From positions 65,764 to 129,763 of the forward strand of contig CABYVV010000002.1 in NCBI GenBank assembly GCA_902522465.1: a stretch of DNA of 64,000 bases, given 5' to 3'. The stretch is from an uncultured Alphaproteobacteria bacterium (GTDB lineage: Bacteria > Pseudomonadota > Alphaproteobacteria > Methylaequorales > Methylaequoraceae). The notes under the pieces were generated by a model. The model searched no databases and was not told where the DNA came from. It saw only the letters and a program-made list of their open reading frames with translations. Below are positions 13,698 through 27,337 of this stretch, one piece after another (the stretch's first letter is position 1; every line of letters starts with the position of its first letter). The translations under genes were made by a program, and so were the position numbers.

Positions 13698-14003
13698 ATG
13701 GACAACAATCCAATCGCCAAAATCAGACCAATCAATAATTTTGAGCTTTCAACCTCTAAACTTGATAATTTAAATGAAAAATCCGAACTTTCACAGGTTG
13801 CCCAAGAATTTGAATCGTTATTTGTTTATCAAATGTTGAAAAGTGCAAGAAAAGCTAAATTAGCTGAAAGTTTGTTTTCAAATCAAGGTAGCGAAACTTA
13901 TGAGTCTTTATTAGACCAAGAATACTCAAAAACAATTGCCAAAAATCATAGTTTTGGAATTGCTGATGCATTAGTCAGGCAATTTGGAGGAAAAAGAAAA
14001 TAA
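13698..14003 (+). CDS. flgJ: Single-domain FlgJ (rod-binding/rod-capping domain only, no muramidase domain)
   Basis: 101 aa. 'QVAQEFESLFVYQMLKSARKA' and 'YESLLDQEYSKTIAK..GIADALVRQF' match the FlgJ N-terminal rod-binding domain. The ORF ends before any glucosaminidase domain. It sits between flgI and flgK. Confidence 0.85.
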   Translation: MDNNPIAKIRPINNFELSTSKLDNLNEKSELSQVAQEFESLFVYQMLKSARKAKLAESLFSNQGSETYESLLDQEYSKTIAKNHSFGIADALVRQFGGKRK

Positions 14004-17000
14004 ATGCCAAGTTTATTTGATATAGGAAAAAGTGGTCTTCAAGCCTACAGACAATCATTGGCTGTAACAGGTCAGAATATAGCAAACGTCAATACAGACG
14101 GTTATAAAAAAAGAGATGTCGCATTGGAGGAAGTCTCCGGAGCAGGAGGTGGAGTCACAGAGATTTCTGATCAAACTGGTTTGGGAGTAAGAGTTGAACA
14201 AATAAGAAGAGCATTTGATGAGTTTTTAATTGACAAGGCTAGACAAGCCTCTTCAAATTTTAAAAGTGCAGAGTCTTTTTCAGATGAATTAAGAGATTTA
14301 GAAAACTTGTTACTTCCCACAGATAATAATCTTAGTTCATCAATTGGTAATTTTTTTAATTCATTGCAGGATATAGCTGCTTATCCTGACGATCAAGCTG
14401 CAAGAATAGTTGCAATTGAAAAGGGAAAAGATTTGGCAGCTCAATTCAATATGTATTCTGATAGAATTGAAAACCTTAAAAGTCAAATTCTTGATAAAAC
14501 AAAAAATGCTGTCACATCTGTAAATTTAATTTCGACACAAATTTCAAATATTAATGCTAAAATTTTGGCATCAGGGGTTGCAACAGGTGGATCTAACGCT
14601 CTATTAGATCAGCGAGATCTTCTCCTTGATCAGATGGCAGAATTAACACAAATTACAGTTAGGTATGGCAGTAAAGGGCAAGCTGAAGTAAGATTAGGTA
14701 ATACTGGTTCTGGGCCTATAATAATTTCTGATGCCGATAATCCTACAAAAGGAAATGAAACTACAACTAACATAAATGTTTTGGAACAGGCCGGCAGATT
14801 ACAACCAGTTGTTGGTATAGGACAGGTTGCAACAAATCAAATAAAAGCTGGATTAATTAATGGTATGATCAATTCATACGCTCAAGCGGAGGATACAATG
14901 AAAGACATCGATTCTCTAGCTTCACTCTTATCACAAAAATTTAATGAAGTTAATCAGGCTGGTTTAGATCTCGATGGAAAAAATGGAAAACAAATGTTTA
15001 CTGTTTCAAGTCTCGAGGCTGTTGAGAACCCAACAAATAGATCTAGTGTTGGAGTTGCAGTTTTTGTTACTAATCCTTTGGAGATTAAAAATGCTGAATA
15101 TAAAGTTATCTATCATGAAAATGAAGATTTGTGGAAACTCACGTCAGATTTAGATTCAAATGTCACTTCAGGAAAACAAACAATTGATGGTCAGGGTTTT
15201 AAAATTTCTTTTTTCGGTGAGCCATTAGATGGTGATGAATTTTCAATTGTACCGAGTAGTGCCTCTAAAGGGATGGCTTTTTTACTTAATAGGCCCCAAG
15301 ATTTTGCAGCTGGCTCCAAAACTCTTATAAGTTCAAGTTCCTCTAACACAGGAAGCGCCTCACTTGAAGAGATCACACCATTAAAATTTGAGGACAAGAC
15401 CAATATTAAAAATATACAAAGTGTGTTTTCAAATGGTTTAAGTCCTGTCACATCTTCAAAATTTTCAACTGATGGTGGTGCAGCAATTATTCAAGCGGGA
15501 ACATCATTCGTCAATTTAAGTTCATATAAAGCTCAACCTGAAATACAATTTGGACTTTCATCATCTGATTTAACTTCAATAACATCTATAAATGTTACAA
15601 TGGCTGACTCAAGTTCTGTTAACGTTGACCTGACTGGTATTAAATCACTTGAGGAATTAGCTGATGTTTTAAATAGGAGTAGAGACGTTCAAGGAAATGC
15701 TCACAATTTTAGATCTATGGGTCTCTTTGCATCTGGTGGTGGATCAACTCTTACAATTGCAAGTAATGATAAGCAATTTTCTTCAGGAGCAATATCCGCG
15801 GCCTCAACAATTAATGCAAATGTTGTCAATCCGACTGTCACGGCAGCAAGTAAATTACAAATATTTACTAGAGAAGGAAGGCATATTGCTGGTGAGGTTT
15901 TATCGGATTCTGAAATTGCTGAGTTTATGACAGAAGAAAATGGATTCAATAGATTTGCAGAATACAGAGCAGATTATCTCAATGGTACCGGCACAGAAAA
16001 ATATAGGGGTATTGAGGTTTCTCGATCAACTACCGATGGGAATTTTGTTATAAGTTATGGAGCTAATGGTGCTGCAGCAAGTGCACAAAGACATGCTACT
16101 ACTGTTCCTGCTAGCCATGTATCTGCTGCATATACTTTAACAGTAAATTCAACATCAACGGCAAAGTCAAAAAATATCACAGTACCAATTGAATCCTCTG
16201 CTGGTTTTGTAGCAGGACTTATTAATAAAGAAGCCAAAACACTTGGTGTTGAGGCTTTAGCTTCCACAAAAGTAAAAATTTCAGCACCATCTTCTAACGG
16301 GACAGTTTCATTTAATATTTTAAGTAAACCAGGTGTAGGGAATGATGCAGACATAACAGCTTCAATTTTATCAACTGATTTAACAAATCTAGCAAATTCA
16401 ATAAACAATTTTTCGGGAAGAACAGGAGTAATAGCAAATTTATCTTCCGATAAAAAACATATTGTAATGGAAAATGCTGATGGAGATGACATACAAATCT
16501 CTTCGTTTTCCTCTCCTAACACTGTAGAAATGGAAGTACTAAAAAATGACTTTTCATCATTTAGTTCTCCAGTAACCGTAATATTAGATAATACAAATTT
16601 TAAAGCAGCAAGATTTAGTGGAGAATTAGAAATCTCTTCAGCATCTGCGATTAGCACTTCCAATGATGGTGGTTCAACCACTGTTACTGGAACTCAAAAC
16701 GCATTAAAAGATGGTTTTCTGAACATTACTTCTTCAAGTACTGGCGAGGTGAAAACTATTAAGCCAGTTGTTCTTGACGGTGATTTTTCAAATGGACATC
16801 CTGACGGATTAAGTGCATCTAGTTCAGTGTTGTCTTATGGTTTGAAGATTCCAGCTGATGGTAATGGGGCTGAATTTAGTGCAACTGTTGATGTTTCAGC
16901 TTTGGAAGTTTTAGAACCATCTCAAGTTGCAAAAAAAATTGCTGAAGGATTAAGAGCAAACAGCCCATCTGCTGAATTGATTGGTACAGCTGTTGAATCT

Positions 17001-19094
17001 TTACCAAAAGATGGAACAAGTTTTAAAGTGAATCATGATGGTCTTACGTACACTTTAACTATGGAAAATGGAGAGGTTGTTGTATCCGGAGGTGAGAAAG
17101 GTTTAGTTACGGCTTATTTTGAAAATCCAGATCCAATTACTGTAAATACAACTAGCTTGAGTGGGACTCAAACAATTACTTCAACTGAGCATAATCTTGA
17201 AACCGGTGATGCAATTAAATATAATGCAGCTGAGAAAGTCACAGTTGATACAACGGATTTCAGTTCTACTAATACCATTTCCGTTATTAACAGTTTTAGT
17301 GATAATGATCCAGTTGTTTACAAAAAAGGAGGTAATTTACCAATTTCAGGTTTGGTTGATGGTACTACTTATTTTGTTAAAAATAGAACTGCAAATAGTT
17401 TTCAATTATCAGCAACTTCAGGTGGAAGTGTAATAACTATTACAGGTGGTACAGGAGGGAGTGTATCAGATACTTTCGCGAGTCCTCGAAATGGACTAGT
17501 AGACGGACAAACATATTATGTTGTAAAAGTTGATGAACATAATTTTAAACTAGCAAACAATTATACTCTTGCAACGAATAGCACTCCATCAGTTATAACC
17601 ATAGGTTCTAGTAGTGTAGGGGGAAATGCTTCTGATACATTCGATCCTCAAAAAAATCTATATATTTCTGGAGGGAAAACTATTTCAGGATCACAATTTT
17701 CTTTCCCAGTTGACTCTGTAAACGATGAAAATGCAAAATTATTTGGAATGCAAAGTACAAACGTTAAAACCACAATAACTGGTTTGTCTGTAACAACTCC
17801 CGCAGCAAGTAACTCAACACATTTTCATATAAAAATTAAAGATAATACCAATCCAATTGGGGTGTTTGTAAAATCAAATTCTAAAACAATAAATACAACT
17901 GGTGTTGGTGGCTCTTCAACAACTTTAACTTCTACTGGTCATGGTTTTAAAACTGGTGACAAAATAACCTATACTGCAGGAGGAACTCAACTTAACGGTT
18001 TGACGAATGGAACCTCATATTTTGCAAAAGTAGTTGATGCAAATACATTTAGCTTAGCATCATCATTTGCTAATGCAACATCAGATTCTCCAACTCTTAT
18101 ATCATTTGGAGGTGGGAATGGTCATGCCGGAGATACTTTTGCAACAGTTTTTGCAACAGCACTTCTTAATGATAATGCATCAACTCCTGCTTCTGCAGTA
18201 GGAATCACTGCTGAAATTAATCAAGTAAGTGATACTAATGCTCAAATTTCCATTATCAAAGAGGCAGATAAAAAAGAAATTGTTATCGATAGAATTACTT
18301 ACAGTGACGCAGCAACTGCAGAATCTTATGGATTTAAAACTAGTCAATTAAATTTAAATGTTTTAAATGATGAAATAAGGATTAAATCTTTTACATCAGA
18401 TTTATCAGGCTCACATGCTGTTGATTTAGAAGTTCCTTCAAATAGTATAAAATCTCTAATTGGAAATAATTTATCCATTTCGAATATTCCATCTGAAGAT
18501 TTAATTGTTCTTATGACAGGAAATGGTTCAAGAAAAATTGCCTCTGATTATGGAGATGTTCTTCCTAACTTAACCGATGAAGAATTTAAAATTTCAATCG
18601 ATTCAGCAAACAATAGAAAAGTTGAAGTGCTAGATAACAATACAGGTCATAGCATTGCAACAAGATTGATCCCAGATGATGGTATAATTAATGTCGTAGA
18701 AAAATCACTGAGAATTAATGGTGATGCAAAAGTAAATGACTCGTTTACGATATTAAATAATAATGATGGTATTGGTGATAATAGAAATATTTTGAAAATG
18801 ATTGATCTTCAAACCTCAGATGTCAATGGCTTAAATTCTGGAAGTTTTCAGGATATCTTTAATAAAACAGCAACTGAAATAGGAGCTACGGTTAGAAGTA
18901 GTCAAATGGAAGCAGAGGATGCTAGAGCAAGTAAAGACGAAGCTATTGCATTAGAAGATGAGAAATCGGGTGTTTCCCTTGATGATGAAGCATCATCTTT
19001 AATACAGTTCCAACAAGCTTTTTCAGCTAATGCAAGAATAATTCAAACAGCAAGAGAACTTTTTGATTCGTTGATGAGAGTAGTTTCTAGATAA
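14004..19094 (+). CDS. flgK: Giant flagellar hook-associated protein 1 (FlgK), 1696 aa
   Basis: The N-terminus 'SLFDIGKSGLQAYRQSLAVTGQNIANVNTDGYKKR' and the C-terminus 'GVSLDDEASSLIQFQQAFSANARIIQTARELFDSLMRV' are canonical FlgK termini. The ~1400-aa middle contains several flagellin 'IN'-type motifs and a repeated module. It is a single uninterrupted ORF. Confidence 0.9.
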   Translation: MPSLFDIGKSGLQAYRQSLAVTGQNIANVNTDGYKKRDVALEEVSGAGGGVTEISDQTGLGVRVEQIRRAFDEFLIDKARQASSNFKSAESFSDELRDLENLLLPTDNNLSSSIGNFFNSLQDIAAYPDDQAARIVAIEKGKDLAAQFNMYSDRIENLKSQILDKTKNAVTSVNLISTQISNINAKILASGVATGGSNALLDQRDLLLDQMAELTQITVRYGSKGQAEVRLGNTGSGPIIISDADNPTKGNETTTNINVLEQAGRLQPVVGIGQVATNQIKAGLINGMINSYAQAEDTMKDIDSLASLLSQKFNEVNQAGLDLDGKNGKQMFTVSSLEAVENPTNRSSVGVAVFVTNPLEIKNAEYKVIYHENEDLWKLTSDLDSNVTSGKQTIDGQGFKISFFGEPLDGDEFSIVPSSASKGMAFLLNRPQDFAAGSKTLISSSSSNTGSASLEEITPLKFEDKTNIKNIQSVFSNGLSPVTSSKFSTDGGAAIIQAGTSFVNLSSYKAQPEIQFGLSSSDLTSITSINVTMADSSSVNVDLTGIKSLEELADVLNRSRDVQGNAHNFRSMGLFASGGGSTLTIASNDKQFSSGAISAASTINANVVNPTVTAASKLQIFTREGRHIAGEVLSDSEIAEFMTEENGFNRFAEYRADYLNGTGTEKYRGIEVSRSTTDGNFVISYGANGAAASAQRHATTVPASHVSAAYTLTVNSTSTAKSKNITVPIESSAGFVAGLINKEAKTLGVEALASTKVKISAPSSNGTVSFNILSKPGVGNDADITASILSTDLTNLANSINNFSGRTGVIANLSSDKKHIVMENADGDDIQISSFSSPNTVEMEVLKNDFSSFSSPVTVILDNTNFKAARFSGELEISSASAISTSNDGGSTTVTGTQNALKDGFLNITSSSTGEVKTIKPVVLDGDFSNGHPDGLSASSSVLSYGLKIPADGNGAEFSATVDVSALEVLEPSQVAKKIAEGLRANSPSAELIGTAVESLPKDGTSFKVNHDGLTYTLTMENGEVVVSGGEKGLVTAYFENPDPITVNTTSLSGTQTITSTEHNLETGDAIKYNAAEKVTVDTTDFSSTNTISVINSFSDNDPVVYKKGGNLPISGLVDGTTYFVKNRTANSFQLSATSGGSVITITGGTGGSVSDTFASPRNGLVDGQTYYVVKVDEHNFKLANNYTLATNSTPSVITIGSSSVGGNASDTFDPQKNLYISGGKTISGSQFSFPVDSVNDENAKLFGMQSTNVKTTITGLSVTTPAASNSTHFHIKIKDNTNPIGVFVKSNSKTINTTGVGGSSTTLTSTGHGFKTGDKITYTAGGTQLNGLTNGTSYFAKVVDANTFSLASSFANATSDSPTLISFGGGNGHAGDTFATVFATALLNDNASTPASAVGITAEINQVSDTNAQISIIKEADKKEIVIDRITYSDAATAESYGFKTSQLNLNVLNDEIRIKSFTSDLSGSHAVDLEVPSNSIKSLIGNNLSISNIPSEDLIVLMTGNGSRKIASDYGDVLPNLTDEEFKISIDSANNRKVEVLDNNTGHSIATRLIPDDGIINVVEKSLRINGDAKVNDSFTILNNNDGIGDNRNILKMIDLQTSDVNGLNSGSFQDIFNKTATEIGATVRSSQMEAEDARASKDEAIALEDEKSGVSLDDEASSLIQFQQAFSANARIIQTARELFDSLMRVVSR
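17184..18140 (+). repeat. Three copies of a ~55-70-aa protein repeat module inside the FlgK variable region
   Basis: Copies: (17184-17477) 'TEHNLETGDAIKY...ISGLVDGTTYFVKNRTANSFQLSATSGGSVITITGGTGGSVSDTF'. (17478-17642) 'RNGLVDGQTYYVVKVDEHNFKLANNYTLATNSTPSVITIGSSSVGGNASDTF'. (17931-18140) 'TGHGFKTGDKITY...LNGLTNGTSYFAKVVDANTFSLASSFANATSDSPTLISFGGGNGHAGDTF'. Confidence 0.7.
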
Positions 19095-20410: not shown

Positions 20411-20959
20411 TCATAAAAAATCATCAATACTGGGTTCTTTTTTTACTATTTCACCTAATTCATGAAGGTCTTCTTCTTTGGCAATATCCCATCCAGCAGG
20501 AGCTCTTTCGAAGTGACCTGATCTTAGAGAAAAAGAATAAGCTTTAAAATTTTTTACTGATTTATTACTATTGTATTGACGTTCTTTATCCCCTTTAAGA
20601 GAATTCTTAAATATACCTTTAATTTTTCTTTCACTTCTTCCGTCAAACTTAAACTTCCAAAAAACGTAATTTATGGCTAACTCATGAGCCTCAAACATTG
20701 GATTTTTTCTTTCAGAAATAAATCTGAGAATTTCTTCACTTGGTGCAGCAATCTCTATCTCTTCAACGCTTTTGTAGTGATGAGATATTGCATCGGAATA
20801 ATTCTTTGATACCATCTCTAGTGATAGTTGTTTAACAAGGAAATCCTTTACTGTAAGGCCAATACAGATATCGTATATAAATTCTGGACAGAATAATTTT
20901 TCACTCATATCAAAATTACTTATGTAAAGGTAATTATACAATAAAACCCAATAATTCAA
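20411..20959 (-). CDS. Hypothetical protein (orphan) wedged between flgL and the flagellin genes
   Basis: 182-aa ORF that abuts flgL convergently with 0 nt spacing. An alternative start is MSEKLF at 20908. I recognise no motif. Its length makes it very unlikely to be random in this AT-rich (stop-codon-rich) DNA. Confidence 0.5.
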   Translation of the reverse strand: MNYWVLLYNYLYISNFDMSEKLFCPEFIYDICIGLTVKDFLVKQLSLEMVSKNYSDAISHHYKSVEEIEIAAPSEEILRFISERKNPMFEAHELAINYVFWKFKFDGRSERKIKGIFKNSLKGDKERQYNSNKSVKNFKAYSFSLRSGHFERAPAGWDIAKEEDLHELGEIVKKEPSIDDFL

Positions 20960-21064: not shown

Positions 21065-21820
21065 ATGCCATCACTTTCAACATATACAAATGGAGCCGTA
21101 AGTGCAGTTAACGCCTCCACTCAGGCTAGAAGATCTCTAACAGCGTCTATAGCACGCATATCAACAGGTATAAGAACATTACATGGAAATGACCCTGCAG
21201 GTCAATCAGTTGCAAGTAACTTAACTACACAGTCAAGAAGTGCAAATATGGCTGCAAGAAATGCAGAGGACGGAATTTCAACGCTTCAAGCTGCAGAAGC
21301 CGTTTTGTTAGAAATGGCAACTTTAAATACAAGATTAAGAGAATTAGCAGTACAAAAGTTAAATTCAGACTTTTTGTCTGCTGCTCAGGAAAATGCAATA
21401 ACAGCAGAAGAAAGTGCAATAGTTGATGCTGCTGAAAAAATAAGTGAATCAACACTCAACGATAGAGAATTATTATCACCATTTTTGCTTGCCGTTAATA
21501 ATCGCGGAACACTCTCACTAATGGGACCAGTTAAAAAACCAGTTCTACAAAGTGGGGTAAGTAACGTCGACACACAAATGGCGAACATATCCATGGCTTT
21601 GGGGCAAGTTGCTGCGGGAATAAATGCGTTAAAAGGGCATCAAAGTAATATGCATTCATTAACTGCCAACGCACGAGCTGCTGCTTCAAGAATTCAGGAT
21701 ACTGATTTTGCTAAAGAGTCTTCCACTTTAGCACAAAGTAGTATTCTAAACCAATCTGCCTTAGCAATGGTAGCGCAAGCTAACAATGCTATGGGTAATT
21801 TATTAACTTTACTACAATAA
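21065..21820 (+). CDS. Short divergent flagellin (class A, paralog 1)
   Basis: 251 aa. The N-domain 'IARISTGIRTLHGNDPAGQSVASNL...ARNAEDGISTLQAAEAVLLEMATLNTRLRELAVQ' and the C-domain 'RIQDTDFAKESSTLAQSSILNQSALAMVAQANNAMGNLLTLLQ' are flagellin D0/D1 helices. The canonical 'SSGxRIN' is replaced by 'STGIR'. A strong SD 'aaaggag' is present. Confidence 0.85.
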   Translation: MPSLSTYTNGAVSAVNASTQARRSLTASIARISTGIRTLHGNDPAGQSVASNLTTQSRSANMAARNAEDGISTLQAAEAVLLEMATLNTRLRELAVQKLNSDFLSAAQENAITAEESAIVDAAEKISESTLNDRELLSPFLLAVNNRGTLSLMGPVKKPVLQSGVSNVDTQMANISMALGQVAAGINALKGHQSNMHSLTANARAAASRIQDTDFAKESSTLAQSSILNQSALAMVAQANNAMGNLLTLLQ

Positions 21821-21838: not shown

Positions 21839-22597
21839 ATGACATCTGTAAGTAACGCTGCCGTTGGTGCTTTTCTAGCTGGAAACGCTGCGGCAAAAGC
21901 AAGACACGGCATGAACGAAGCAATTGCTCGATTGTCGACAGGTATAAGATCTATGTATGGCGGTGACGCGGCTGGTGCGTCTGTGGCTCATACTCTGAGA
22001 GCTGATGGACGAAGTGCAGCGATGAGTGCTCGTAACGTTGAGGATGGTATTTCATTCTTACAAGCGGGTGAGTCTGCACTACTGGAAATAGCTGCGCTTA
22101 ATACAAGATTAAGAGAACTTGCAGTTCAAAAACTTAACGCTGCATTTTTAGATGCCAACCAAGAAGCTGCAATCACTGCTGAAGAAAATGCAATTCTTGC
22201 AGCTGGTAATTTAATCGATGCTGCAACACTAAATGATACCGCTCTTTTATCAGCTGCGATAAATTTTACCAGAGATATGGATGGTGCAGTCACAGCATTT
22301 GGTTCAAACGCTGATTTAACCCTAGCATCTGGTATAACTGCAGTAGATAGAGAAATGGGTAAGATATCTAAAGCCCTAGGTTCTCAAGCTGCTGGTATTG
22401 CTGCTCTTAAAGGTCACCAAGGTACATTGTATGGATTAGCTGCAAACGCAGAAGCTGCTGCTGCACGTGTTCAGGATACTGATTTTGCAAGATCATCTGC
22501 AGATCTAGCAAAATTTTCTATCTTGAACCAATCAGCAATGGCTATGGTAGCACAGGCTAACCAAGCTAACGCTGCTGTTTTGGCGGTGCTAAATTAG
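21839..22597 (+). CDS. Short divergent flagellin (class A, paralog 2), Ala-rich and visibly more GC-rich
   Basis: 252 aa and collinear with paralog 1. Shared blocks include 'ARLSTGIR', 'ALNTRLRELAVQKLN', 'AITAEE', 'ALKGHQ', 'QDTDFA' and 'ILNQSAMAMVAQAN'. It lies 18 nt downstream of paralog 1 and has its own SD 'aaggag'. Confidence 0.85.
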   Translation: MTSVSNAAVGAFLAGNAAAKARHGMNEAIARLSTGIRSMYGGDAAGASVAHTLRADGRSAAMSARNVEDGISFLQAGESALLEIAALNTRLRELAVQKLNAAFLDANQEAAITAEENAILAAGNLIDAATLNDTALLSAAINFTRDMDGAVTAFGSNADLTLASGITAVDREMGKISKALGSQAAGIAALKGHQGTLYGLAANAEAAAARVQDTDFARSSADLAKFSILNQSAMAMVAQANQANAAVLAVLN

Positions 22598-22852: not shown

Positions 22853-24412
22853 ATGGTTAGCGTAAGCACAGTAAATACTCACGCATCATTGAAGCACATT
22901 ATTAAGACTGAAAGAGAGATGCTCCAAGCAATGGAGAGAATCTCTTCAGGAAAAAGAATAAATAATGCAGGTGATGATGCAGCCGGTGCAGCAATAAGTG
23001 ATAGAATGTTGGCAACGGTGAGAGCTTTAGATATGTCAATTAGAAATGCATCTGATGTATTGTCTATGGCTCAGGTTGCAGAAAGTGCAATCAATGAACA
23101 CTCACAAGCTTTACAAAGAATTAGAGAATTATCAATACAAGCAGCAACTGATATTTTGAATGCTGAACAAAGAATTTATCTACAAACTGAAGCTAACCAA
23201 TTAATTCAAGAAATGGATAGAGTTGCAAGAGATACCACTTTTAATGAAATCGCTGTGCTAGATGGTACTTTTGCTGATAGACGTTTTCAAATCGGATCTC
23301 ATGAAAGAGAAAAAGCAGTTATCTCCGTTGCTAATATGAGAGTTGATAAAATTGGTGCATACCAAAGTTCAACAAGTATGGATGAAGCGGGAACAGCTGG
23401 AAACCTAGCATCAGAGGGTGTAGTAGGTGCCAATGCTTCTGTTACCAGTAGAGTAGTTGATGGAGATGATCTAACAATTACTGGATTAGTAGGACAAACA
23501 ACTATTGACGTAAAAGCTGGGCACTCAGCAAAAGATATTGTTGAGTTAGTTAATGCTAAATTTGATAATACAGGAGTAAGTGCAACTGCAACTACTACTG
23601 TTAAAATGCAGGTAAATAGTTCTGATGCTGCAACAGATCATGTAGTATCTTTTAATTTATACGGTAAAAATACAACTGCTCAGGCAATCTCTGCAACAAT
23701 TAGTGTTGCGGCAACAGTCGGAGCTTCAGATATGACAAACCTTCGTGATGCCATTAACGCCTACACAGCCACTACAGGAGTGAGAGCAACATTAAGCGCT
23801 GATAAATCAAACATTATATTAGTACAAGATGAAGGCGAAGATTTAATAATTGAAACAATTGATTTTGCAACTGTTACAAATGCTAATACTAAATTTACAT
23901 TTACAGCAATGTCTCAAGATCAAACAGATTCTGCAGCGACACAAATTACTACGGCTGTAGATACAAATCATAATAGTGGTAACACTGATTCAGTGAGATT
24001 TACTGGACAAATTACATTTCACTCTTCGCAAACATTTACAATTGCTGGTAATTCCGGTGGTGGTCTTTATGAAGCTGCACCGGGAACAGCTTCTTTAAAC
24101 CAAGTTGCTTCAATTGACATTAGAACTGTAGCAGGTGCTGTTGATGCTTTAAAAGTAATTGATAGAGCACTTGATAGGGTTCATATGGAACGCGCAAAGT
24201 TTGGTGCAATCATGAGTAGGATGAATGTTGTTATTGACAATTTAACAAATGTGTCAACAAACCAAAAGACTTCAAGATCAAGAATTACAGATGCAAACTT
24301 TGCAGCTGAATCAGCTAGACTTGCTAAATCTCAAATTCTACAACAATCTGGAATGAATATGATTTCTCAAGCATCAAGAACTATGCAAAATGTTTTAATT
24401 TTATTTAATTAA
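22853..24412 (+). CDS. fliC: Canonical long flagellin (class B)
   Basis: 519 aa. It has 'MERISSGKRINNAGDDAAGAAISDRM' and 'LQRIRELSIQAA', a Thr/Ser/Ala-rich central domain with IN-type motifs ('MTNLRDAINAYTATTGVRATLSADKSNIILV'), and the C-terminus 'RITDANFAAESARLAKSQILQQSGMNMISQA'. Confidence 0.92.
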   Translation: MVSVSTVNTHASLKHIIKTEREMLQAMERISSGKRINNAGDDAAGAAISDRMLATVRALDMSIRNASDVLSMAQVAESAINEHSQALQRIRELSIQAATDILNAEQRIYLQTEANQLIQEMDRVARDTTFNEIAVLDGTFADRRFQIGSHEREKAVISVANMRVDKIGAYQSSTSMDEAGTAGNLASEGVVGANASVTSRVVDGDDLTITGLVGQTTIDVKAGHSAKDIVELVNAKFDNTGVSATATTTVKMQVNSSDAATDHVVSFNLYGKNTTAQAISATISVAATVGASDMTNLRDAINAYTATTGVRATLSADKSNIILVQDEGEDLIIETIDFATVTNANTKFTFTAMSQDQTDSAATQITTAVDTNHNSGNTDSVRFTGQITFHSSQTFTIAGNSGGGLYEAAPGTASLNQVASIDIRTVAGAVDALKVIDRALDRVHMERAKFGAIMSRMNVVIDNLTNVSTNQKTSRSRITDANFAAESARLAKSQILQQSGMNMISQASRTMQNVLILFN

Positions 24413-26572: not shown

Positions 26573-27337
26573 ATGTCCCTAGCATTATACCCAGCTATTA
26601 AACTTGGAGATAACCAAGAAAAGATTAAAAGATCAATATCTAGGCTGACCACTGGATTAAATATTTTAGCGGGTGCAACATCTGGTGAATTTGCTGAAGG
26701 AATTTCTTTACATGCAGAGGGAAAATCAAATCAAAAAGTGATTTCAACTACAAATGTTGGCCTTGATTTGTTAAAGACGGCTGAATCAGCTCTTATAGAG
26801 TTGGCTGCACTTGCTACTCGTTTAAGAGAAATTGGTATAGCAGACACAGTCTCTTCAAATAGCGCATCAGATACCGCAGCGCTGAATGCAGAGGCTATCG
26901 CTGTAAGCGACAGTATTGATGATATTGTATCTACAGCAAAGTTTCATAATTTAGCGCTTTTATCAACTGGTGCGAGAACACTGGCTACAGTCAAAGACGG
27001 AGGTGGAAATACAACTACAATTAAAACTACAGCAGGTATAACAGCCACTAACATAACAGATGCAACCAACTCTAATACTACAGCAGACACTGCAATTGGT
27101 GAAATTGAAACATCATTAGGTCATGTTGCCGGTCATATAAATTCTTTGGGTGCATATCAGAACACAGCTAATGCATTAGCTTCGATTGAATTAGAGTCTG
27201 CAGCAAAATTAATGGATACTAATTTTGCGCTCGAAACAGCAAAATTAATGAAAAAAAACCTAATCCAAAAATATGCCACCTCAATGGTAGCAAAAGCCAA
27301 TGAAATTGAAGAAAATAAAAAATTATTAATTCTCTAA
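26573..27337 (+). CDS. Short, highly divergent flagellin-like protein (class C)
   Basis: 254 aa. 'ISRLTTGLNILAGATSGEFAEGISL', 'LLKTAESALIELAALATRLREIG', 'LGAYQNTANAL' and 'MDTNFALETAKLMKKNLIQKYATSMVAKAN' align with flagellin N and C helices. It starts 6 nt after fliS paralog 1. Confidence 0.7.
   Translation: MSLALYPAIKLGDNQEKIKRSISRLTTGLNILAGATSGEFAEGISLHAEGKSNQKVISTTNVGLDLLKTAESALIELAALATRLREIGIADTVSSNSASDTAALNAEAIAVSDSIDDIVSTAKFHNLALLSTGARTLATVKDGGGNTTTIKTTAGITATNITDATNSNTTADTAIGEIETSLGHVAGHINSLGAYQNTANALASIELESAAKLMDTNFALETAKLMKKNLIQKYATSMVAKANEIEENKKLLIL

Follow-up and report, generated by a model that had tools for sequence, protein, structure and literature searches.

The stretch of DNA analysed here (the window) comprises 64,000 nucleotides (nt) of contig CABYVV010000002.1 from an uncultured alphaproteobacterium of the Methylaequoraceae (GenBank assembly GCA_902522465.1, positions 65,764 to 129,763 of the forward strand), and the element in question is a repeated protein module inside its flgK gene, which encodes hook-associated protein 1. 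All copies of the module lie in a single uninterrupted open reading frame (ORF) on the forward strand (window 14004-19094), whose product of 1696 amino acids (aa) is about three times the usual size of FlgK. The protein is a genuine FlgK, though giant. The TIGR02492 (flgK_ends) profile matches both of its ends with a total of 260.5 bits (cutoff 170.75), Pfam recognises Flg_bb_rod (PF00460) at aa 6-35, FlgK_D1 (PF22638) at aa 97-332 with an E-value (E) of 1.3e-44 and Flg_bbr_C (PF06429) at aa 1653-1692, and the gene is flanked by flgJ, encoding a rod-binding protein, and flgL, giving the order flgJ-flgK-flgL. The conserved-core halves are separated by about 1200 residues of insert, and an earlier reading of the bare sequence (the original prediction) had placed the repeats in a surface-exposed part of the protein, which is fair since they sit in the insert between the core halves. 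The host genome of 1.33 Mb is 87% complete, and FlgK is its sole carrier of the module.

The features are listed below in window coordinates. The three module copies are named M1, M2 and M3, and module positions refer to a 75-position hidden Markov model (HMM) that was iterated from the third copy over all collected proteins and comprises 1420 instances. Confidence values are predicted local distance difference test (pLDDT) scores of an AlphaFold2 model of aa 1040-1400, built from an alignment of 37 orthologues.

14004..19094, + strand: flgK, giant hook-associated protein 1; 1696 aa with no cysteine; identified by TIGR02492, Pfam and gene order.
14004..15041, + strand: N-terminal conserved core of FlgK (D0/D1 half); aa 1-346; Pfam and TIGR matches.
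16521..16526, + strand: empty site between SPNT and VEME (aa 840 and 841), where a fourth module sits in orthologues of 1774-1805 aa.
17169..17237, + strand: N-terminal piece of M1, QTITSTEHNLETGDAIKYNAAEK; aa 1056-1078; HMM 2-24; pLDDT 84-93, with two short predicted strands.
17238..17279, + strand: linker that leads to M2; aa 1079-1092, between the first and second HMM hits.
17280..17477, + strand: M2, complete and probably nested in M1; aa 1093-1158; HMM 6-75; a short subtype without the small helix.
17478..17642, + strand: C-terminal piece of M1; aa 1159-1213; HMM 24-75.
17643..17915, + strand: inter-module segment; aa 1214-1304; mean identity to orthologues 0.67; aa 1220-1266 modelled with low confidence.
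17916..18140, + strand: M3, complete and stand-alone; aa 1305-1379; HMM 1-75, 98.5 bits; pLDDT 82 in a separate model of aa 1300-1390.
18684..19091, + strand: C-terminal conserved core of FlgK (D1/D0 half); aa ~1561-1696; Flg_bbr_C at 1653-1692 and the second TIGR02492 stretch.

Pairwise local alignments between the copies score 95-103, compared with 27-33 (standard deviation 5-6) for the shuffled sequences that served as control (z = 12-15), and the module HMM matches FlgK four times with E = 3e-5 to 2e-30. Judged by these alignments, the three copies are shown to be homologous. The thrice-repeated module of the original prediction is hence real, and a statistical test of the kind that it had proposed as a check found significant self-similarity. 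Chance or low complexity as the cause of the repeat was ruled out by the shuffle statistics. The motif claimed to close each copy, D-T-F, was seen at aa 1156, 1211 and 1377, and the predicted G-L-x-(D/N)-G occurs in all copies as part of GLx(D/N)Gxx(Y)(F/Y) at aa 1116, 1164 and 1332. Two further signatures held in part: N-x-F-x-L-(A/S) is strict in two copies (NSFQLS and NTFSLA), whereas the third reads HNFKLA, and H-x-F-x-TGD is clean in M3 (HGFKTGD), whereas M1 has HNLETGD and M2 the degenerate NSFSDND. The boundaries had to be redrawn; the coordinates given earlier translate to aa 1061-1213 and 1310-1379, the real unit is about 75 aa long instead of 55-70 aa, and the repeat starts at nt 17169 instead of nt 17184. 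Searches for direct and tandem repeats at the DNA level returned nothing meaningful, and the copies are therefore considered old, stemming neither from recent duplication nor from an assembly artefact.

The arrangement of the copies is more intricate than the two adjacent copies plus a third that had been described, and is better read as one split module enclosing a complete one, plus M3. Very probably M2 is inserted in the beta2-beta3 loop of M1, such that the chain breaks off from M1, forms M2 and only then completes M1. This layout is strongly favoured because the HMM coordinates of the M1 pieces are complementary, their join is gap-free, alignments to phage proteins cross the join, and the predicted strand order mirrors that of M3. 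The four hits of the HMM on FlgK, at aa 1056-1078, 1093-1158, 1160-1213 and 1305-1379, cover model positions 2-24, 6-75, 24-75 and 1-75, respectively; the first and the third are exactly complementary halves of M1 on either side of the complete M2. When aa 1055-1077 and 1160-1213 were joined in silico, the product matched the HMM once, over its full length and without gaps, at 91.5 bits; M2 and M3 reached 68.7 and 107.1 bits in the same test. Used as a tblastn query, the joined M1 gave contiguous alignments across the join (between query positions 23 and 24) to tail proteins of cultured phages, namely gp7 of S-SM2 (3e-6), gp111 of Bellamy (1e-5), the 'tail tubular protein B' of Pelagibacter phage EXVC032P (3e-5) and the tail fibre of P-HM1.

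The AlphaFold2 model has a mean pLDDT of 82 over aa 1040-1400, with the module blocks at about 84-95, the isolated 23-residue N-piece included, and the order of strands and short helix in the split M1 mirrors that of M3. The split point falls in the loop after the second strand, between ...Y-x-a-g-g and t-x-i-x-G-L... of the module pattern. By module HMM, the succession of N-piece, full module and C-piece is shared by all FlgK orthologues, and such patterns are found in unrelated module-bearing proteins too, one of which encloses four complete modules. Residues 1220-1266 between M1 and M3 (window 17661-17801; model residues 181-227) have pLDDT values below 50 though their identity among orthologues is about 0.67. 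As a side observation, the strands flanking M3 (aa 1285-1296 and 1377-1388) may form a further domain hosting M3.

With respect to fold and family, scans of the module region against Pfam and NCBIfam yielded no family at threshold, in keeping with the original prediction, where it was not recognised as one of the standard domains of flagellar proteins. Taken together with the structural model, the module, cysteine-free in FlgK and predicted to form a beta-barrel, is a domain of about 75 residues from a family without a name in the curated libraries. The sole Pfam signal on the FlgK copies is E1_FCCH (PF16190), at 18.3 bits for the region and 15.3 for M3 against a gathering cutoff of 29.5. A model of a single module (aa 1300-1390) searched with Foldseek against the PDB returned E1 enzymes or the isolated FCCH domain as all 50 top matches, at modest values (E = 0.02-0.16, TM-scores of 0.37-0.51, probability up to 0.99). 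The E1 FCCH domain (PDB 2V31, 3CMM), the best solved match with TM-scores of 0.45-0.51, is a small closed beta-barrel that shares the H-G-F-x-x-G-D-x-V...F motif with the module, whereas the E1 context is absent around the FlgK modules. Three further searches against the PDB were unhelpful, in that Foldseek with the three-module model was uninformative, the query being multi-domain, phmmer with the module region gave matches at chance level (E1 at E = 1.2), and a profile of 28 diverse modules found nothing significant. The latter profile aligns with the endosialidase barrel of phage phi92 (PDB 4hiz, residues 202-252) through HG(L/F)xxGDxV...F, at E = 0.26. The corresponding family, End_beta_barrel (PF12195, cutoff 35 bits), has zero matches on the FlgK copies and is found in 5 of the 28 diverse modules, below threshold and with a best E of 0.0024. 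The endosialidase barrels of phi92 and K1F share motif and size with the module, though all matches are below threshold, and the endosialidase barrel is itself inserted within another domain. The FCCH barrel and the phage endosialidase barrel are probably remote relatives of the module.

Closer kin are found among phage tail proteins, and the kinship to phage tail fibres that the original prediction had loosely felt was borne out by several methods. PHROG profiles match the module region as phrog_2885 'baseplate wedge subunit' (8.2e-15), phrog_38233 'tail fiber protein' (2.6e-11) and phrog_7765 (7.7e-5), and other module-bearing proteins are hit by the same PHROG families (2885, 38233, 9370, 7765 and 4711 being those named for the module). 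Foldseek against the predicted viral structures of BFVD gave 40 matches at E <= 1e-3 (best 7.5e-9), headed by cyanophage proteins annotated as 'baseplate wedge initiator', 'short tail fibre' and 'fiber'. While a tblastn search of GenBank phages with all 319 aa of the region gave no match, single modules retrieved proteins annotated as tail components from cultured phages of Synechococcus, Prochlorococcus, Pelagibacter, Sinorhizobium and Leptospira. The same module of about 75 aa thus recurs in tail-fibre and baseplate-wedge proteins of marine phages (S-SM2 gp7, the 'baseplate wedge initiator' gp111 of Bellamy, the 'YapH protein' tail fibre of P-HM1 and P-HM2, and EXVC032P) at 40-54% identity to the FlgK copies and with matches to PHROGs 2885, 38233 and 9370. 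In the phage proteins it mostly forms long tandem arrays within virions, whereas FlgK has three copies, one of them probably nested, in a flagellar axial protein. We found neither a solved structure nor an experimentally assigned function for the phage modules.

HMMER, run exhaustively over 1.84 billion representative sequences, recovered 1466 proteins at E <= 1e-3 (250 at E <= 1e-10), each standing for a cluster at 50% identity, with up to 27 module copies per protein and carrier proteins of up to 6585 aa. Eight top hits were scanned, of which three are giant flagellins and the others have PHROG matches to virion-structural or tail-fibre proteins; two flagellins of 1850 aa contain eight copies each, and further carriers have N-termini typical of giant secreted surface proteins. 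The module is frequently used in the construction of marine phage tail fibres and baseplates, as well as of giant flagellins and of giant proteins on bacterial surfaces. Within the family of the host, a module-bearing giant FlgK was found in 21 of 25 sampled genomes, spread over ten genera; 16 genomes of the class from outside this family yielded none. FlgK pieces 92% and 82% identical to the one described here occur on contigs PBAP01000021.1 (L018) and CAJWHT010000127.1 (L031), which are filed under metagenome-assembled genomes (MAGs) of a 'Flavobacteriales bacterium' and a 'Desulfobacteraceae bacterium', probably through binning errors. Modules 51-55% identical to the FlgK copies were also seen in two places (L032, L033) on NHDW01000007.1, a contig of the marine gammaproteobacterial MAG 'Methylococcaceae bacterium TMED69'.

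The mutual identity of M1, M2 and M3 is 35-41% (35-37% for M2 with M1 or M3). M2 is 49-54% identical to modules of the phage-like proteins P0090, P0094, P0110 and P0123, the first of which shares its 36.7-kb contig with a gene for a phage adaptor. M1, M3 and the fourth module of the orthologues are 45-58% identical to the module of the hook protein FlgE from sister genera and lie near those of giant flagellins. Since each copy has closer relatives in other proteins than within FlgK, none arose by recent local duplication of another. The modules instead act like cassettes, entering and leaving a protein as entire units. The fourth module, as delimited by orthologue alignment, is a complete cassette of about 92 aa with clean boundaries, and raises the number of HMM hits to five compared with four here. 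Its presence on the FlgK tree is patchy, implying repeated gain or loss, and the position of the window's clade inside a group that has the cassette suggests that it was lost in this clade.

A similar picture emerges for FlgE. The FlgE of this genome is likewise giant (1305 aa; contig C9:21508-25410, loci L009/L010), and its counterparts in sister genera of the same family reach 1539-1547 aa with Pfam FlgE domains (L007:3075-7694 and L008:3049-7692). In the sister-genus proteins, two C-terminal pieces come after a complete module; on its upstream side, one N-terminal start was detected by the HMM and a second was read by eye. This order of pieces indicates that the modules of sister-genus FlgE are nested two deep. 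The nest (aa 731-980) is missing from the FlgE of this genome as one clean block.

On the orthologue alignment, ordinary purifying selection acts on the modules, which are conserved to the same degree as the core of FlgK. The mean identity to the 37 orthologues is 0.78 for M3, the best-conserved complete module of the insert, 0.80 and 0.70 for the two pieces of M1 and 0.60 for M2, with the conserved ends of the protein at 0.71-0.75. Residues that are invariant in the orthologues are almost all motif positions of the whole family (H, F, TGD, Y, GL, G, Y, F, L, A, G and D-x-F).

How might such modules serve a hook-associated protein? Axial proteins are exported in an unfolded state and take on their fold at the tip, and the proximal junction layer consists of eleven FlgK subunits (PMC12221982); surface inserts require a chain path that runs out and back (PMC6248924), FlgK diverges together with its hook (PMC5691160), and six-stranded Greek-key barrels of the FCCH type decorate the outward face of siphovirus tail tubes (PMC13576161). 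Overall, and with moderate confidence, the best explanation of the locus is that barrel modules have been built into the surface insert of FlgK in a nested, scaffold-like fashion. More tentatively, at a chance somewhat short of even, the modules would be self-folding, disulfide-free and insertable scaffold units that extend FlgK outward, a role proposed because the invariant residues are motif positions and the modules are as conserved as the core. FlgK is exported unfolded via the flagellar channel. An extra domain has to leave and re-enter its core at a single point, and a barrel hosting another barrel in one of its loops would let the exposed part of the protein grow outward stepwise. Multiplied by eleven FlgK subunits, the modules would form a wide collar of 33 barrels at the hook-filament junction, possibly matched to the equally oversized hook protein (FlgE, 1305 aa) of the same lineage.

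Several points weigh against this interpretation. Solved structures match the fold only weakly (Foldseek E = 0.02-0.1), all Pfam matches of the module are below threshold, and the packing of the two M1 halves against each other is inferred. The scaffold role is a default reading that rests on the lack of an additional conserved surface patch, and while no extra patch marking a binding site was seen among the orthologues, these are only 60-92% identical and give such a comparison little power. Finally, the organism is uncultured and its flagellum is known from genes alone.

Several alternatives have been considered. According to the simplest, local duplication produced three independent copies side by side, the first long (aa 1061-1158) and the second truncated at its N-terminus (aa 1159-1213). 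A linear reading of the translation does give this picture, with D-T-F closing each stretch; however, a barrel deprived of its first two strands would be unable to fold, two H/N-x-F...Y starts lie within the 'long' copy, and the coordinates of the pieces join into one full domain exactly. Together with the 35-41% identity between copies that are each nearer to modules elsewhere and leave no DNA repeat, this makes a side-by-side origin highly improbable. A different possibility concerns function rather than layout, namely that the modules are ligand-binding (lectin- or adhesin-like) domains at the hook-filament junction, by which the base of the filament would stick to glycans, particles or cells. 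The K1F endosialidase barrel, a probable remote relative of the module, carries a binding site for polysialic acid (PMC12632334), and the sub-threshold End_beta_barrel signals in 5 of the 28 modules, the alignment to the phi92 barrel, and the frequency with which phage receptor-binding proteins and giant surface proteins of adhesin-like N-terminus contain the module all point the same way. Yet, at E = 0.26, homology with the endosialidase barrel falls short of significance, and a site of the K1F kind is not evident in the FlgK modules, whose conserved residues are the motif positions of the fold core. Only eleven subunits per flagellum, close to the cell surface, would be a poor place for an adhesin, and in phage fibres many modules usually follow one another in a long array, as is typical of shafts or spacers. 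Overall, we regard ligand binding as unlikely.

The affinity to phages invites another explanation, in which the modules act as a decoy or shield against flagellum-binding phages or as a docking site for the phages' own modules. In its favour are the resemblance of M2 to modules of phage-like proteins, the phage adaptor gene on the contig of P0090 and the presence of the module in tail proteins of Pelagibacter, Synechococcus and Prochlorococcus phages. An arms-race surface would not be expected to be as conserved as the FlgK core under ordinary purifying selection, nor to keep a stable arrangement across ten genera, and we know of no phage of this lineage; a phage-directed role is accordingly held to be quite improbable. 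Improbable too, if a shade less so, is a broader proposal, in which the barrel is an exchangeable, insertable unit that moves between phage tails and flagella, nesting is the general route by which flagellar axial proteins extend outward, and the modules may mediate like-to-like contacts, be it in the docking of module-bearing marine phages or within a reinforcing collar of neighbouring FlgK and FlgE subunits.

Returning to modules as an outward-extending scaffold of FlgK, precedents are found in other flagellar proteins, and the finding extends the known theme of outer-domain expansion therein. Giant flagellins are enlarged by a surface insert, whose 'DE region' matches only flagellins (PMC6248924; Thomson et al. 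2018), and flagellin outer domains have been surveyed (PMC11532411). Like the giant FlgK they place their insert, with its repeats, between the D1 halves on an out-and-back chain, and the metagenomic giant flagellins P0091, P0092, P0111, P0113 and P0114 carry 7-12 copies of the very module of FlgK. In contrast to the DE region, the FlgK module also matches phage proteins, and FlgK is present in 11 copies per flagellum whereas flagellin is present in thousands. The FlgK of Campylobacter jejuni (PDB 5XBJ) is another genuine FlgK with extra outer domains that diverged with an enlarged hook (PMC5691160), yet with about 600 aa it is far from the 1696 aa seen here and has no such barrel repeat. The outward-facing FCCH-type domains of siphovirus tail tubes (PMC13576161) provide a parallel for decoration of a tubular polymer. 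Literature searches turned up neither a giant FlgK carrying such modules nor an account of the module family or of FCCH-type domains in flagella. Large size as such, with extra outer domains, has a precedent in the FlgK of Rhodobacter sphaeroides, at about 1360 aa.

The outer domains of flagellins are actively studied with regard to filament thickness, stability, adhesion and recognition by immune systems and phages; FlgK and the hook are rarely considered in this respect. Here a marine lineage that is widespread and has very small genomes devotes 5 kb to FlgK, and part of the insert is built from an unnamed domain family that is abundant in the tails of ocean phages. The nested layout would show how a protein that leaves and re-enters the core of a polymer at one point can still add domains, and the gain and loss of cassettes in FlgK and FlgE would provide natural variants for comparison. 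A definition of the family, with its 1466 clusters, would improve the annotation of phage tail fibres, giant flagellins and adhesins.

The flgK gene lies within a flagellar gene cluster. Upstream of flgK lie flgG, flgH, flgI and an flgJ of the rod-binding-only kind, whose product of 101 aa (window 13698-14003) has the rod-binding domain without the muramidase domain. Downstream follow flgL, two flagellins of 251 and 252 aa, a flagellin of 519 aa, fliD and a flagellin of 254 aa. A 182-aa ORF without a Pfam match is located on the reverse strand between flgL and the flagellins (window 20411-20959). The barrel module is absent from all four flagellins of this genome despite its giant FlgK and FlgE. 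The flagellin genes are found at window positions 21065-21820, 21839-22597, 22853-24412 and 26573-27337; three of them encode minimal proteins of 251-254 aa with core domains only, and the fourth the 519-aa protein with Flagellin_IN motifs.

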